DNA from: a virus
Lineage: Duplodnaviria > Caudoviricetes
Length of the DNA stretch: 24,854 nt
Direction: 5' to 3' (one strand)
IMG/VR virus record: IMGVR_UViG_3300050119_000279
Span: 1 to 24,854 of that record
Part shown: positions 4,367 to 18,038 of the stretch, one piece after another
Layout: every line of letters begins with the position of its first letter
How positions within the stretch are numbered: position 1 is the stretch's first letter
Made by a program: the position numbers and the translations under genes
The notes under the pieces: generated by a model
Database searches by the model: none
Seen by the model: only the letters and a program-made list of their open reading frames with translations
What the model was told of the DNA's origin: nothing

Positions 4367-5338
4367 TTATTTTTCATATCCTAAATTTATCACCTTGAAA
4401 CTTATCGGAGCATGGCCTAGTAAATTTTCTTGAGATCGTACCACAACACCTTCACGAGGCTTTCCATTGCTATAAGTACCTTCACCTAAATATTCAAGCT
4501 GCTTTTTATCAAAACTTTCGCCTGATTTAAGCCAAGCAACCGTTAGAAATTGTGAATCAGAACATAAATGAAGCAATTCTTGCATCGTCAAATATCTATG
4601 CTCGACAATATTGTAAGCACTAAAGGCATATCCTTCTATCTCTTTCAAGCCCATAGGGTTCCCTTGAATACCGGGACCACATGTTTCCCATTGTAGCGCT
4701 ATTCCTTCCGGCAATTTATTTGACAAATCATATCTCAAAGCAATTTTCCAATAACCATTCTCTTCATTAAAAGCTAATTCAAGGTTACGGCTACATAGTC
4801 CAAAATGGTTTTTATATTTAAATGCCGTTGTAGATGATCCATCAGCCTTCTCCGTGATATAATATGGCTTTCCTTCAAGTAAATCGATCAATTCTTGCGA
4901 ACGTTGGTAATTGGGTTCATCAGTTTTGGGAATAAAATCAGGAAAATGACCGATCGCCATACCATTTAAATGTGCTGGCATTGGCTTATGATATTTTGTG
5001 ACATTCATAAATAAGGTTATATCTTCACCAACTTGAGTATTAATTTTAAATATTTCTGGCATAATCACAACTTCACTCGGTGCACCTCGAAATCGACGCA
5101 TCTTAACGCGCCAATTACTGCTCTTCATGAAAGCCATTTCTTCGCTTTCTGCAATTAATGTATCAGGAAGATAGACAATGCATTTACTATCTATTTCAAA
5201 ATCACCTTTCTTGACAATACCTCGCCATTTTCCACCAACTCCACATACAACAGTCGCGCTAACGATAAAATCAGCATTTGGTATCTCTTCAATAGCTATG
5301 ATCTTTCCAACATAAACCAATCCTATATTTTTCTTCAT
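4367..5338 (-). CDS. ATP-dependent RNA ligase, DRB0094/Rnl2-like family, with N-terminal OB-fold
   Basis: N-terminal KIIAIEEIPNAD...VKKGDF OB domain; FPDFIPKTDE; motif I TEKADGSS; E..G.GIQGNP; motif IV EGVVVR; motif V FKVIN. Confidence 0.9.
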   Translation of the reverse strand: MKKNIGLVYVGKIIAIEEIPNADFIVSATVVCGVGGKWRGIVKKGDFEIDSKCIVYLPDTLIAESEEMAFMKSSNWRVKMRRFRGAPSEVVIMPEIFKINTQVGEDITLFMNVTKYHKPMPAHLNGMAIGHFPDFIPKTDEPNYQRSQELIDLLEGKPYYITEKADGSSTTAFKYKNHFGLCSRNLELAFNEENGYWKIALRYDLSNKLPEGIALQWETCGPGIQGNPMGLKEIEGYAFSAYNIVEHRYLTMQELLHLCSDSQFLTVAWLKSGESFDKKQLEYLGEGTYSNGKPREGVVVRSQENLLGHAPISFKVINLGYEK

Positions 5339-7130: not shown

Positions 7131-7204
7131 TCATTTACTCCTTTTAAAAAGATGGCACGTGTTGTAGCGCATATTACATTCAATAAATGAGCCATCAACA
7201 ATGT

Positions 7205-7276
7205 TTGTACTGAATGGAATTGAACCATTAATCGGCTAGTTATGAGTTAGCTGCTTTACCTTTAAGCTACAGCACA
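7205..7276 (-). tRNA. tRNA-CAU (elongator Met or Ile2), no encoded CCA
   Basis: TGTGCTG TA GCTT AAAGGTA AAGC A GCTAA CT-CAT-AA CTAGC CGATT AATGG TTCAATT CCATT CAGTACA A: complete cloverleaf with an A31-C39 mismatch; lacks the three G-C pairs of initiators. Confidence 0.85.
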
Positions 7277-7280
7277 ATAT

Positions 7281-7352
7281 AGGGAATGGGTGGGATCGAA
7301 CCACCTACCAGTGGCTTAACAGGCCAATGCTCTACCAGTGAACTACACTCCC
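7281..7352 (-). tRNA. tRNA-Asn(GUU) by anticodon, no encoded CCA
   Basis: GGGAGTG TA GTTC ACTGGTA GAGC A TTGGC CT-GTT-AA GCCAC TGGTA GGTGG TTCGATC CCACC CATTCCC T: complete cloverleaf. Confidence 0.9.
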
Positions 7353-7360
7353 CTATTTGT

Positions 7361-11541: not shown

Positions 11542-11790
11542 ATGATTATTCCTTTAGGTACTCGCGTTCTTATTAAACCTTTCAAAGAAGAAAAGAAATC
11601 AACCATCCTTCTTGTCGAGGAAAAAGCCCCTACACAGTATGAAGTTGTTGCTATTGGAGATGACGTAACAAAATTATCTGTTGGGAATTTAGTATTTATT
11701 GATCCTTATACATACTCTAAAGTTGAATATAAAGATGAAATACTTCTTATTATCGAGGAAGCAAAAGTCTTAGCTAAATTCTTAAAATAG
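11542..11790 (+). CDS. groES: Co-chaperonin GroES/Cpn10 homolog
   Basis: PLGTRVLIK, short mobile loop (EEKKSTILL), EVVAIG, VG..V, IIEE..VLAK. Confidence 0.85.
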   Translation: MIIPLGTRVLIKPFKEEKKSTILLVEEKAPTQYEVVAIGDDVTKLSVGNLVFIDPYTYSKVEYKDEILLIIEEAKVLAKFLK

Positions 11791-13854: not shown

Positions 13855-14085
13855 ATGGCACTCAATAAAGCAGTTAATAATGTAGATAGCAGAGGTGATA
13901 AGCCTGCACAAAAAGCTAAAGAAGGGCTTAAATTTCCTTTGGGCAATGCTCATTGGGAAAACAAAGTAGAAGAAACGGAAATGGCTGATCTTCGCTATGC
14001 AAGCGAGATGAATACAGCAGCGGAATATAAGAAATCCGTTGATGGATTAGCTAAATATGTTAAAAAGAATAAAATGGATTACTAA
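13855..14085 (+). CDS. Small hypothetical protein of the head module
   Basis: AGGGG SD; followed by a terminator-like hairpin. Confidence 0.7.
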   Translation: MALNKAVNNVDSRGDKPAQKAKEGLKFPLGNAHWENKVEETEMADLRYASEMNTAAEYKKSVDGLAKYVKKNKMDY

Positions 14086-14135: not shown

Positions 14136-14150
14136 TTGAAAGGATTTATC

Positions 14151-14372
14151 ATGGTTAAAGAAAAAACTGTGCATGGCGTTGATTCAGTTAAACGCAAAGA
14201 TGCTGATGTTGTTAAAAAAGGATTTGGCCCGGCTATTCCTAATGATCAATGGGAAATGCGCGTCAATCCAATGCCTGCTGGTATTCCGAATGATCCAGCT
14301 GGTGCATTCCTTGCAATGGAAGGAAAAAATAGACCAGTTCCACACAAAAAAATAAACGAGTATGATTATTGA
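14151..14372 (+). CDS. Small hypothetical protein
   Basis: Likely start ATG 14151 (MVKEK) with AAGGA SD. Confidence 0.65.
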   Translation: MVKEKTVHGVDSVKRKDADVVKKGFGPAIPNDQWEMRVNPMPAGIPNDPAGAFLAMEGKNRPVPHKKINEYDY

Positions 14373-14986
14373 TGACTAAGCGAGTAACAGCCGGAGAACT
14401 GTCTCAAAAAGCTTTAGCCGATACAACCAAATATGATGCTTTAGAAGTTGGTCATGCAATGACTGATGATGTTACGCATCAATTAAGAGAATGTGTACGC
14501 CTCTATAGAGACAAGATAGATGAGGATGAATTCTGTGTTATTCGGATAATTGCTAGCGATCCTCTTATTAAGAATGCTAAGAGGTTTAAATATTATGCAT
14601 GGCCATATCTACCAGCACCTAGGCCGAATCAGGCCGTATTTCTTTATAATAAGCCTTTAGATCAGTTTACCAAACGTCTATGGATTCTTCCTAGTGCTAT
14701 GGTAATGGCCGAACTTGCAGGAACTAGCATCGTCGTTGATAAACGATATCAGACAATGCAAGCCTGGAGTGTTGCATTCTTCAAGGGAACATTTTGGGAA
14801 TATATTCGCCATGAACATGATATAGATATGCTATCTCAAGAAGAATATATGTTAGTTCATCGCGAGGAATTGATTAAGGCTGGATGTAAGTTGTTCGAGG
14901 CGCACACTTCCGAGCCCTTTGATTTTAGTAAGATCGCGATCGAGAAGATCGTAGACACGAAGACAGTCTTGGCCGATGAGGATTGA
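14369..14986 (+). CDS. Phage hypothetical protein
   Basis: Coupled to the previous gene; globular, aromatic-rich 205-aa ORF. Confidence 0.75.
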   Translation: MMTKRVTAGELSQKALADTTKYDALEVGHAMTDDVTHQLRECVRLYRDKIDEDEFCVIRIIASDPLIKNAKRFKYYAWPYLPAPRPNQAVFLYNKPLDQFTKRLWILPSAMVMAELAGTSIVVDKRYQTMQAWSVAFFKGTFWEYIRHEHDIDMLSQEEYMLVHREELIKAGCKLFEAHTSEPFDFSKIAIEKIVDTKTVLADED

Positions 14987-15139
14987 TTCGATGGCTTTAG
15001 GCAAACAGAGTACCCCTATTGGGGCATCAGCTATCATAAAAGTAACAGTTTTTCGATAGTTATTTAAACTTTTCATGAGATTCTTGTTAATTTTATTCAT
15101 CTCTTTTTCGAGAATCTTTTGGGCTTTATCAGTATACAT
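14852..15139 (-). CDS. Stand-alone RNA polymerase alpha-CTD-like (helix-hairpin-helix) protein
   Basis: PIGVLCLPKAIESILIGQDCLRVYDLLDRDLTKIKGLGSVRLEQL follows the alpha-CTD pattern PI..L.L......L....I..V.DL.....L.KI.GLG...L..I. Confidence 0.65.
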   Translation of the reverse strand: MYTDKAQKILEKEMNKINKNLMKSLNNYRKTVTFMIADAPIGVLCLPKAIESILIGQDCLRVYDLLDRDLTKIKGLGSVRLEQLTSSLNQFLAMN

Positions 15140-15154
15140 ATAAGGAAATCACCA

Positions 15155-15913
15155 ATGGAAGAGCAGAAACAACAACAAACAACAATATCTGAAGTAAAAA
15201 CAGAAGATAAGATTAATCCTGTTCAAAATCAAGAAAATTTAGCAATTTCTCAATCGGATAGTAAAGAGGAAAAGCCTAAAACAGCAACGGAATGGGATAA
15301 GTTTCGGGAAGCTAGAGCTATAGAGCGTAAACGTGCTGAAGAAATCGAGAAGCAAGCTAGAAAGAGTGCTGAAGAAGCGGCAGCCTTAAAAGCAGCATTA
15401 GAAGCAGCATTAAATAAACAACAATATAATGCTCCCCAATCTCAGAATGGATATGACAATGGTGAAGAGACTGAAGAGCAGCGTATTGATAAGAAAGTTA
15501 ACGCAGCATTAGCAAAGCGTGAAATAGAAGCAGCCAAACAGCGTAAAGAACGTGAACAAGCGGAATTTCCTGAAAGATTAACTTCCACTTATAGAGATTT
15601 TAATCAAGTTTGTTCAACTGAAAATCTAGATTATTTAGAATATCATTATCCTGAAGTTGCCGGAGCTTTTAAACATTCACCAGATGGCTTTGATAAATGG
15701 GCATCGGTTTATCAAACCGTTAAACGATTAGTTCCTAATGCTGATTCTAAAAAAGATCAGAAAAAAGCAGAAGCGAATTTTAATAAACCTCAGAGCGCTT
15801 CATCACCAACTGTAACAAGTACAGGTCAAGCATTAACAGCTACGCATTTAGATGAATCAAGAAAAGCCTCTAATTGGACAAGAATGCAGAAAGCTATGAA
15901 AGGATTAAGCTAA
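15155..15913 (+). CDS. Capsid scaffolding protein (putative)
   Basis: Likely start ATG 15155 with AAGGA SD; E/K/Q/A-rich coiled coil; located upstream of the capsid gene. Confidence 0.7.
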   Translation: MEEQKQQQTTISEVKTEDKINPVQNQENLAISQSDSKEEKPKTATEWDKFREARAIERKRAEEIEKQARKSAEEAAALKAALEAALNKQQYNAPQSQNGYDNGEETEEQRIDKKVNAALAKREIEAAKQRKEREQAEFPERLTSTYRDFNQVCSTENLDYLEYHYPEVAGAFKHSPDGFDKWASVYQTVKRLVPNADSKKDQKKAEANFNKPQSASSPTVTSTGQALTATHLDESRKASNWTRMQKAMKGLS

Positions 15914-16100: not shown

Positions 16101-16129
16101 TTGAACATAAATATTTAAATATGTAATTT
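16101..16129 (+). promoter_or_regulatory. Possible promoter for the capsid leader
   Basis: TTGAAC-N17-TAATTT; the predicted start near 16136 lies just before the structured leader. The AT-rich context lowers specificity. Confidence 0.4.
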
Positions 16130-16138
16130 ATTGTTTTC

Positions 16139-16224
16139 GGACTGGATGTTGTGGGTTGTCCTCCCACCGGGCTAAATCACGGGTTGCCCTCCGTAGGCTG
16201 ATAAGTTCACCTTGCCAAGTGAAC
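16139..16224 (+). ncRNA. Structured capsid 5' leader: three tandem hairpin/pseudoknot units
   Basis: GGAC-tggatgtt-GTGGG-tt-GTCC-t-CCCAC; GGGC-taaatc-ACGG-gtt-GCCC-t-CCGT; GGC-tgataa-GTTCAC-ctt-GCC-aa-GTGAAC. Confidence 0.6.
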
Positions 16225-16253
16225 GTGAATATCATTAACTTACGAGGTCAACC

Positions 16254-16555
16254 ATGTCATTCCCTACCGGAATTACAAATATCAACAATTTTGCTCCAGA
16301 GTTGCCAGTGCAGGCTTCTGAAGATCTATTGTCAACTCCAATGTTCAATTTGATCCACTCTTTCGGAGTCGATCTTCATCATGCCGAAGCTTATATCGGT
16401 AAAACTACACGTATGTCACGTTTTGAGCGTCTATCTACAGATGGCGGTCAACTTGATGGTTCTGGTATTGATCCAGCATCTGAAGTTCCAGTTCGTAGCG
16501 ATATTGACGCAACAATGGAAATTTATGCGAAATCAATTGTTACAAATGAGCAGGT
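16254..16555 (+). CDS. Major capsid protein (N4-gp56-like), exon 1
   Basis: GAGG SD; G.T.R..RFERL...L...GIDP......R.DIDA....Y......NEQV motif; capsid-like sequence stops at the group I 5' splice site. Confidence 0.9.
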
Positions 16556-16646
16556 CAAAAAATTATGCACAGCCTGCTATAAACCAACTCTAAATATCTT
16601 GGAAGGCCTAAAAGTTTAATAAACTCAAGGTAACCAGAGGCAACTC

Positions 16647-17135
16647 TTAATTATAGGAACGATTTCTAGCATGAAGATTACGAAGTTCGAGACAAAGTTT
16701 AGCGCGAAGTTCATGGATCTCAGGTTTAACTTGAGGACCAGATTGACCAACGCAATAAAACTTTTGTTTACCCGATCTAACCATCTCCATGATGATTTCA
16801 GCCTGTCTTTTCTTAATGATGAGATAGGGATAAATAATTTCACATATATGAAGAAGTCTATCACCGGTACATTGCCATTTATATACAGTTTTAAGACTGT
16901 TTATAGGTGTTTGTTTTCTAGTGTATTTAAACTTTTTGCTGCCAAAATTATCAACAAGCCAGTCGATGAGAATTTCATCAGTGGAACTAATGATAAGATA
17001 GGTTGTGTACCAAGGATTACCATTCTTGGCTTTAGCATAAGTTCCGGAAGTAAGGGCACCTTCACCATCAACAATGCCAGCCATATAGGCACAAATTGTT
17101 TCTGGATAAATTTTGCGAATGTATTTATCAATCAT
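16647..17135 (-). CDS. Single-motif LAGLIDADG homing endonuclease, intron-encoded, antisense
   Basis: AYMAGIVDGEG motif, Y.W, IYPYLIIKKRQAE motif; likely start ATG 17135 (MIDKY) with GGA upstream; 162 aa. Confidence 0.9.
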   Translation of the reverse strand: MIDKYIRKIYPETICAYMAGIVDGEGALTSGTYAKAKNGNPWYTTYLIISSTDEILIDWLVDNFGSKKFKYTRKQTPINSLKTVYKWQCTGDRLLHICEIIYPYLIIKKRQAEIIMEMVRSGKQKFYCVGQSGPQVKPEIHELRAKLCLELRNLHARNRSYN

Positions 17136-17169
17136 ATGAAATCCATTGCTAACGTTGTTATATACGTTA

Positions 17170-17198
17170 ATGATAACATAATTAAGGCAGAGCCGCAA
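17170..17198 (-). promoter_or_regulatory. Antisense promoter for the homing endonuclease
   Basis: Minus strand TTGCGG-N17-TATCAT with TGn extended -10, about 35 nt upstream of ATG 17135. Confidence 0.6.
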
Positions 17199-17371
17199 CG
17201 ACTAAGTGAGATGGACTGCATTATTTTAATGCGGTAAGCGATAGTCTAAACAATGGTGAAAGCCATTGAGACGGGATTAACAAGACCGTCCGCCACAATA
17301 AAAGTCCACCGAGACTATAAACAAAGTGGTCAGTAAGCTTAACTATGAGCTGAAAGTAATAGATCCCAGTG

Positions 17372-18038
17372 TGTGCTTTGGGAAAATAGCAAGACTCTAA
17401 CAAAGTTTACAGCATTATTAGGACAATGGGTAAGAGAAAAAGAAGATTTGCTAATGCGCGACCTTTTCAGTTCTAGTGTATCTTATATTAATGCCACAGG
17501 TGGTTTAAACGGCGATCAGCCTTCAAACATATCCTTGAACGATGTTAATAATATTGAAACTATTCTTCTTGGTAATGATGCGCGTACAATGCTTGTAAGC
17601 ATAGATGCAATGAATAAATTTGCTACAGGCCCTACTAGAGATGCTTTTATAGCGCTTGCAAATACAAATTTGACAAACGATCTTCAGAAAGTACAAGGTG
17701 TATTGCTTAAAAATGCATATCCTGCACAAGAAGGTCTAAGACCAGAAGAGTATTGTTCGATCTCTAGATTCCGTTTCTTTGTTTCTTCTAAAGCTGCAAA
17801 GATTCCTGGAGCATCACTTAAAGGTAATACTGTTTATACAATCCCTATGTATGGTTTAGAAGCTGCAGCCAAGATTGAACAGAATAACTACACCGCTGTT
17901 ATCGGTTACCGTCCGCCATGGGTTGTTTCGTCTGTTTCACAAAACAGTCAACTATATGCGAAGTTTGCGATTGCTCGCGCGATTACAAACCAAAATTGGA
18001 TCTCTGGTCTGAATGCGACAACATTCCAACCATCATAA
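17372..18038 (+). CDS. Major capsid protein (N4-gp56-like), exon 2
   Basis: Spliced junction CAG GT|T GTG CTT TGG reads NEQVVLWENSKTL; LGQW.REKED.LMRD motif; 302+667 nt gives 322 aa. Confidence 0.9.

Follow-up and report, generated by a model that had tools for sequence, protein, structure and literature searches.

What purpose do three small predicted pseudoknots serve when they stand in a row in the leader of a phage capsid mRNA? The question is raised by positions 16139–16224 (+ strand) of the DNA analysed here, a 24,854-nt stretch, hereafter the window, which is a phage head and tail module with a terminase, a P22-like portal, a scaffold-like gene and a capsid gene from 16254. A sequence-only reading had reported three back-to-back units at this place, and they were found, by direct reading, exactly as described. 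Unit 1, the 5'-most (16139–16167), has a loop helix (GGAC 16139–42 / GUCC 16158–61) and a stem (GUGGG 16151–55 / CCCAC 16163–67). The middle one, unit 2 (16169–16194), pairs GGGC 16169–72 with GCCC 16186–89 in its loop helix and ACGG 16179–82 with CCGU 16191–94 in its stem, and carries an anti-Shine-Dalgarno strand in stem, loop and 3' arm. For the 3'-most, unit 3 (16196–16224), the loop helix is GGC 16196–98 / GCC 16214–16 and the stem GUUCAC 16205–10 / GUGAAC 16219–24. Besides the sequence as read, covariation in relatives bears on unit 1, and predicted folds on unit 3. The first description is refined in that each loop helix holds one extra pair beyond a one-base bulge (U16143, U16173, U16199), which is G-U, A-U and G-U in units 1 to 3 of the window and G-C in most relatives.

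The array is indeed a GC-rich island (56% GC, versus 16% in the 85 nt upstream), and 19 nt separate it from the GAGG of the capsid Shine-Dalgarno sequence (SD, 16244–47), close to the 20 nt first estimated. Among 1000 shuffles of 16139–16224, none held two or more strict units and 59 held one, against three in the real sequence. The plain minimum free energy (MFE) of the region was unexceptional (z −0.47 and z −0.85), as expected of a folding program that cannot form pseudoknots. No second copy of the array was found in the window's phage; in the near-identical complete record G001, tandem units occur at the capsid only, and model R1 gave one strong match per three-unit genome. A search for a transcription attenuator or intrinsic terminator (a hairpin followed by a U run) found none on the + strand between 15000 and 16600. 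A tRNA or tRNA fragment was rejected, as ARAGORN and Rfam detected only the tRNA-Met(CAU) and tRNA-Asn(GUU) at 7203–7353 (− strand). An RNA ligase gene lies at 4367–5338 (− strand).

The array had been placed at a predicted transcription start. A putative sigma-70-type promoter lies at 16101–16129 (+ strand; −35 TTGAAC 16101–06, 17-nt spacer, −10 TAATTT 16124–29), from which transcription would start near 16136–16139. It has 7 of the 12 consensus bases and was not called by a promoter scan; the position itself is kept in relatives. A sigma-70-like promoter matching at least 8 of 12 bases was found upstream in 18 of 36 three-unit leaders, versus 5.4 +/− 2.1 in shuffles, and the −10 box of the relatives mostly ends 6 nt before the first unit. 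This placement across three-unit leaders upholds a cis-regulatory position at the start of the transcript.

The controlled gene encodes a major capsid protein of the N4-gp56 family. Its exon 1 (16254–16555, + strand) is 99% identical to the same part of an intronless relative, L001, which scores 62.3 bits against TIGR04387 (cutoff 60). Exon 2 (17372–18038, + strand; phrog_1357, major head protein) is 91% identical to residues 102–322 of the intronless L002 capsid. Between them lies a group-I-like intron (16556–17371, + strand, boundaries placed by inference), undetected by Rfam, with an endonuclease ORF on the opposite strand (16647–17198; phrog_5046), which looks like a LAGLIDADG enzyme and is labelled HNH in PHROGs. 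Capsid introns of relatives occur at the window's site and after residue 127. The scaffold-like gene (15119–15913, + strand) is so labelled from its position; it is present in 211 loci of the clustered set and had no PHROG, Pfam or NCBIfam match. Further upstream, two small basic proteins (13855–14085, 14136–14372) and a 205-aa protein (14369–14986), conserved before the scaffold and of no family, are candidates for RNA or DNA binding; an Atlas look-up of the 205-aa protein returned unnamed clusters only. A phage-encoded GroES-like co-chaperonin lies at 11542–11790, between terminase and portal.

Relatives were collected with exon 1 as the query, which gave 254 in the viral collection, 80 of them kept, and further scans added more. 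The resulting 200 loci comprised 196 with a capsid N-terminus and, once short, N-containing and more than 90% alike leaders were dropped, 132 leaders, referred to below as the window's clade. A pattern scan revealed the same triple array before capsids only 28–30% identical, and searches from such distant capsids provided 212 more loci with 140 distinct upstream regions. About 1000 viral and 840 metagenome stretches are estimated to hold a matching peptide pattern. Seven contigs from genome collections bear taxon labels that are unrelated, probably because of mis-binning; when model R1 was applied to five of these taxon-labelled genomes, the capsid-leader copy was the only one found, in two of the five. 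Six of 40 matched cultured records were examined and none was counted as a member, five of them having the capsid start at most 30 nt from the upstream gene. The Massilia violaceinigra plasmid NZ_CP024609.1 (L668 727–843) has a 117-nt structured gap before its N4-gp56 capsid gene, with two weak parser matches, a possible loop–upstream pairing and no conserved loop U, and poppyseed gave one isolated parser match, inside the upstream gene.

Units were parsed with a position-weight scheme that ignores whether the loop can pair with the upstream segment. Because U-C-G in the loop and R-R-C..G upstream score well in it, rare variants go undetected and conservation at the favoured positions is overstated. 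In all, 562 units were parsed in 272 distinct leaders: 287 in the 132 leaders of the window's clade and 275 in the 140 distant ones, versus 10–20 and 25–32 in shuffled leaders. Most capsid leaders in a large group of uncultured phages with N4-gp56-family capsids thus contain the unit, in two to six copies as parsed. Its consensus is R-R-C-(optional bulge)-G, a linker mostly of 3–8 nt, a stem of 3–7 bp and a loop Y-U-C-G-Y-Y-A. The bulge is present in 226 of 287 units in the window's clade and absent from 220 of 275 distant units.

Both helices of the unit covary. The middle variable pair of the loop helix is Watson-Crick in 277 of 287 units of the window's clade (189.8 expected) and in 267 of 275 distant units (140.4 expected); for the other variable pair the counts are 223 against 114.2 expected and 234 against 140.6. 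A loop pairs with its own upstream segment in 106 of 121 cases and with that of the next unit in 16 of 121, which rules out pairing between neighbours. A pair between the conserved loop U and the second base past the bulge was also ruled out (134 Watson-Crick, 132 expected). In a structure-blind MAFFT alignment of 35 three-unit leaders, most of them picked by the unit parser, 90.7% of the positions were paired (75.1% when shuffled), 17 of 20 pairs showed double changes, and every slid control was less than 49% paired. The leaders are related sequences, so that these counts are not counts of independent events. With a loop that pairs with a flanking segment and two covarying helices, the unit can be classed, by sequence comparison, as an H-type pseudoknot, and this part of the sequence-only reading holds.

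The same data bear on the reading that no RNA element exists and that the repeats are DNA operators, or chance. The units are direct repeats beside a promoter, as operators might be. Their sequence varies, however, while pairing is kept in both helices, the wobble pairs are G-U on the sense strand, and 1000 shuffles never reproduced two units. Covariation largely refutes this reading, which we regard as most improbable.

In its sequence the loop resembles an anticodon loop that makes a U-turn. Loops are 6–9 nt long; Y-U-N-R is matched in 225 of 287 and 212 of 275 units (counts partly selected by the parser), and among 7-nt loops 136 of 177 and 91 of 127 stand between Y and A, flanks whose identity the parser does not score; a U-turn geometry would be consistent with this sequence pattern. 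Linkers shorter than 3 nt are rare: 280 of 287 and 270 of 275 units reach that length, in keeping with a rough hand estimate, based on textbook A-form geometry, of how long a strand must be to bridge the two helices. Among 227 units, the third loop measures 1 nt in 173 and 2 nt in 33. In distant units the two bases after the upstream segment are U (226 of 275) and A (241 of 275), and an A usually follows the loop core. A variant unit has classical loop proportions and masks the same anti-SD by another geometry; all of its 26 viral matches lie 55–82 nt before the start of an N4-gp56-family capsid gene, and on the tree it turns up here and there (10 changes) in a region of weak support.

Array length is itself variable. 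In L447, exact duplication has expanded the array to about seven 24-nt copies, from about −290 to −120 relative to the capsid start, and the arrays of L374, L382, L342 and L507 have also grown by exact or near-exact tandem duplication. In L109, L112, L113, L114 and L125, long self-contained hairpins lie between the first and second unit; such insertions would hold the units physically close despite the extra length.

A second fold, mutually exclusive with the array and missed by the sequence-only reading, pairs the middle unit with the SD region. Its 5' strand (16182–16202, + strand) consists of GGUUG 16182–86, CCUC 16188–91, GUAGG 16193–97 and UGAU 16199–16202, and its 3' strand (16231–16253, + strand) of AUCA 16231–34, CUUAC 16239–43, the SD GAGG 16244–47 and CAACC 16249–53; both were placed from the MFE structure in the window and from covariation across relatives. 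When the window is folded without pseudoknots, the unpaired probability of the SD is 0.0. The middle unit is predicted to pair with its own ribosome-binding site (RBS) at −17.6 kcal/mol, versus a mean of −9.6 with the RBS of other leaders; for the whole clade, the figures are −15.3 for own and −9.5 kcal/mol for cross duplexes. The own RBS was among the best 5% for 36 of 82 middle units, in contrast to 3 of 83 and 3 of 62 for the other units, the last figure being that of the unit 1 class, which has no own-RBS signal. A looser parser gave a smaller middle-unit signal (23 of 97 in the top 4%), and a parsing-free scan of complementarity to the RBS peaked at −76 to −47.

In the window's clade the competing helix is 15–20 bp long. 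Both of its halves covary (45 of 63 each, p 1e-4 and 1e-6), and no covariation was seen in its apical part (31 of 63). For 34 of the 36 three-unit leaders the closed fold is the MFE structure, and 62 of the 85 leaders with at least two units and a recognisable SD have the middle unit as SD partner. Such a covarying alternative helix would make the leader a two-state element. By nearest-neighbour estimates without pseudoknot terms, made on 52 leaders selected for having the closed fold, this fold is favoured over bare hairpins by a median of 14.6 kcal/mol, and by 3.3 once full loop-helix stacking is granted with no loop penalty, at which point 41 of the 52 stay closed. The window's own gap moves from +10.2 to −3.2 kcal/mol with the same stacking. 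Given the shift of the median, the two states are predicted to be close in energy, with the closed one as the usual default. Unit 1 is predicted to survive in both states, and the hairpin of unit 3 to become the apex of the closed fold, where its upstream segment would be sequestered.

Pairing with the SD is weaker or absent in the distant clades. Of 86 leaders there, 38 have the last unit as SD partner and 43 have no unit in this role. Own and cross duplexes differ little (−6.8 versus −5.8 kcal/mol), with 6 of 88 reaching the top 4%, and the SD is predicted to be no more occluded (median unpaired probability 0.26) than in leaders lacking the motif (0.21, n = 32). The unit is therefore the constant part of the group, and the SD helix is strong in some lineages only.

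The location of the array was then compared across loci. Tandem pairs in 271 loci numbered 203 in capsid leaders and 16 elsewhere, versus 4 in a shuffled copy; of the 16, nine belonged to the same arrays (further upstream or on the other strand), one to a scaffold leader, and six were chance-like. When mapped on a tree of 224 capsids, the leader occurs in the two deep clades alike and requires 4 parsimony changes. In the distant set, 39 of 40 leaders with the upstream stop less than 60 nt from the capsid start had no unit, and 67 of 68 with the stop further away had at least one; for the remaining 32 no gap was called. Where the scaffold gene abuts the capsid gene, a unit stands directly before the scaffold gene in 23 of 32 phages, versus 2 of 163 phages with a capsid leader. 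On these sequence counts, the array goes with the capsid transcript. The units of scaffold leaders stop about 0–6 nt before the SD, and no anti-SD was visible by eye; a protein bound at this place would more likely repress. A second, classical-looking type of small pseudoknot lies 40–90 nt before the scaffold start in L404, L405, L385, L402 and others, upstream of the relocated unit and often enclosed by a helix. In L326 (180–1298) an ORF that by appearance is IS605/TnpB-like separates scaffold and capsid leader, and the array stays with the capsid; L227 (299–428) has a sub-threshold match to HEARO RNA.

Two arrays were found in other settings. G005, a phage with a variant-type capsid leader, carries a second array, of two units (G005:C1:16465-16355, − strand), with promoter-like sequence and an anti-SD helix, before an 806-aa gene that is tail-fibre-like by position and composition and has no PHROG match; the G001 orthologue of this gene lacks an array. 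A last pattern scan returned 120 loci, 68 of them next to the N4-gp56-type capsid family, one a leader of this family cut short, and 51 others. Fourteen of the 51 had a hairpin, namely L581, which precedes an intron-split capsid of the same family, L560, and 12 that looked chance-like by eye. In L560 (701–828; G010:C1:7165-7289), a single case, a full triple array precedes a 431-aa major head protein of an unrelated family. This phage has 58% GC, its array begins 14 nt after the upstream stop codon, and the last unit forms an 8-bp helix reaching into the SD. Its 14.6-kb contig (35% complete) had no protein in common with G001–G006 or with the capsid neighbourhoods (E<0.01).

The unit, its two helices, its repetition, the competing helix and the link with the capsid transcript, all established by sequence comparison, suggest that the leader is likely a two-state translational switch, on as pseudoknots and off as a long hairpin. 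Our preferred reading, to which we assign a probability of about 0.42, is that the middle unit competes for the RBS and that a bound protein holds the array open. The pseudoknots, being local and made before the SD, would form first during transcription and leave the SD free. A protein that binds the repeated fold, possibly in a cooperative manner, would then keep the array folded and the RBS open; without it, the RNA would refold into one long hairpin that blocks translation, the closed fold being the predicted equilibrium state with the open fold within a few kcal/mol. The 5' unit may have a protective role. A bound protein is favoured because a unit outside the switch is retained, because copies multiply, and because capsid output must be high and stage-specific. 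Leaders retain units that play no part in the competing helix, and arrays gain copies by exact duplication (L447), as would suit repeated binding sites, and the same logic is rebuilt in other registers in the variant unit, the second G005 array and the L560 array. The search for an effector by gene association showed no neighbouring gene cluster that tracks the motif. Autoregulation by scaffold or capsid, put forward in the sequence-only reading and for which P22 scaffold is reportedly a precedent, gained no support, since no neighbour tracks the motif and the unit also stands before the unrelated capsid of L560.

The same two folds could also work with no binder at all, as a kinetic timer: the U-turn loops would trap the anti-SD on the nascent RNA, ribosomes would load, and the message would later relax into the closed hairpin, as in the MS2 maturation leader, a precedent described in PMC4615214. 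That the pseudoknots are local and transcribed before the SD, that the variant unit masks the same anti-SD with another geometry, and that the unit occurs with unrelated phage proteins are all consistent with such a device, as is the partly parser-selected fit of the loops to Y-U-N-R, a motif described as speeding RNA-RNA pairing (PMC8464778). A timer gives no purpose, however, to the 5' unit, to arrays of 5–7 copies or to scaffold-leader units without an evident anti-SD; infection stages would be indistinguishable to it; and the MS2 device serves a low-copy protein (PMC4615214), whereas capsid is needed in bulk. We consider the timer rather doubtful.

Unlikely, too, is a constitutive stabiliser or translation enhancer, an always-folded array that shields the 5' end or blocks the progress of nucleases, with the SD pairing as a clade-specific add-on or minor fold. 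Compact pseudoknots can be obstacles to scanning by RNase E. An array that begins at the predicted transcription start and moves with it, as the scaffold leaders indicate, whose copy number is elastic, and which pairs with the SD in only about half of the distant leaders, could well act in this way. A pure stabiliser would nevertheless not retain a 15–20-bp competing helix that covaries with the SD region and dominates the predicted ensemble, and in L560 the 14 nt after the upstream stop leave no intergenic room for a promoter. Still less probable is a new riboswitch class, in which the unit would be a minimal metabolite or ion aptamer and the tandem copies a cooperative on-switch for capsid synthesis, that is, tandem 25-nt anticodon-like pseudoknots portable between unrelated phage lineages and virion genes. 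Its layout of aptamer plus expression platform, closed by default, the presence of the unit in unrelated phages and the conserved unpaired U and A after the upstream segment and A after the loop core would all suit an aptamer. On the other side, invariant bases are few, with variation even in the core pairs, the bulge can be missing, the variant unit is built on a different geometry, a U-turn explains the conserved loop bases, and the context consists of virion genes only, without metabolic genes.

If the protein-held switch or another form of it is real, a large uncultured group of dsDNA phages gates its most abundant virion protein at translation, by a modular RNA device absent from Rfam, and this would explain the timing or dosing of a capsid gene that stands behind an ordinary host-type promoter. 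A protein trigger would mean a phage translational activator acting on repeated pseudoknots, and a small-molecule trigger a new riboswitch class; an element without a ligand would still amount to a new timer acting during transcription, or a new stabiliser, of use to synthetic biology. With a unit of about 25 nt and hundreds of natural compensatory variants, structure, polarity and trigger are accessible with synthetic RNA and a reporter.

The sequence-only reading could match the array to no riboswitch class, and a covariance-model comparison with Rfam 15 agreed, the leader having no match at E<=10 or at the gathering threshold. Arrays of 6 plus 8 relative loci likewise gave none at threshold, and the sole overlap among relatives was a sub-threshold ncS54 (25.6 versus 43 bits) on the minus strand of L273. 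The preQ1-I aptamer is a very small H-type pseudoknot that controls a downstream RBS and has a long A-rich third loop. The main unit has a third loop of 1–2 nt instead of this tail, its genes are not related to queuosine, and Rfam gave no match, so that preQ1-I was rejected; classical loop proportions are shared by the variant unit only. Guanidine-II (mini-ykkC) consists of two tetraloop hairpins whose loops pair with each other, and was rejected because the present loops of 6–9 nt pair with their own upstream segment, again with no Rfam match.

A search of the literature, with partial coverage of subscription papers, found no description of the motif. The closest entries are DNAVirus_3698 (85 nt, found 37 times) and DNAVirus_865 (62 nt, found 4 times) of Fremin et al. 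2023 (PMC10690425), two anonymous candidates from IMG/VR that lie no more than 25 bp upstream of capsid_maj_N4 genes. The array too lies just upstream of an N4-type capsid and one candidate, at 85 nt, has the length of three units, so that the array may overlap them and may already have been catalogued as an unnamed candidate, the comparison being by description only. In the main text of that paper 'tandem' and 'riboswitch' do not occur and pseudoknots are mentioned only for gp32.

Three characterised systems share some of its features. The repZ leader of the IncI-alpha plasmid pCol1B9 has a 5' pseudoknot that is required for translation, and is shut by the antisense RNA Inc with FopA (PMC9977716). 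There too the pseudoknot excludes an RBS-blocking helix, a relation that prediction and covariation indicate in the window's clade and that is weak in distant clades. In contrast to the one pseudoknot of repZ, the capsid leader has two to six short, local, tandem units on a phage structural mRNA, with no known antisense RNA. In the Levivirus MS2, the stable fold of the maturation 5' UTR joins the SD to a complement further upstream, which a structure that forms earlier keeps hidden (PMC4615214). The capsid leader likewise has an upstream anti-SD in its predicted stable fold, which an earlier structure would hide; but MS2 uses one metastable hairpin, in an RNA phage and for a low-copy protein, whereas repeated pseudoknots are used here by dsDNA phages for the most abundant virion protein. 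The autoregulatory pseudoknot of T4 gene 32, about 70 nt before the start codon and followed by an A+U-rich stretch, nucleates protein binding (PMC3014915). It resembles the array in its position as a phage mRNA leader pseudoknot and differs in being single and in serving repression by the gene's own SSB through an unstructured tract. In the capsid leader the corresponding tract is taken up, in the predicted fold, by a covarying helix, the open state would be the one with the pseudoknots, and a capsid gene lies downstream, so that membership of the gene 32 operators was rejected. The array belongs to none of these three systems and represents a real and conserved RNA family, as yet uncharacterised, that likely functions as a switch.
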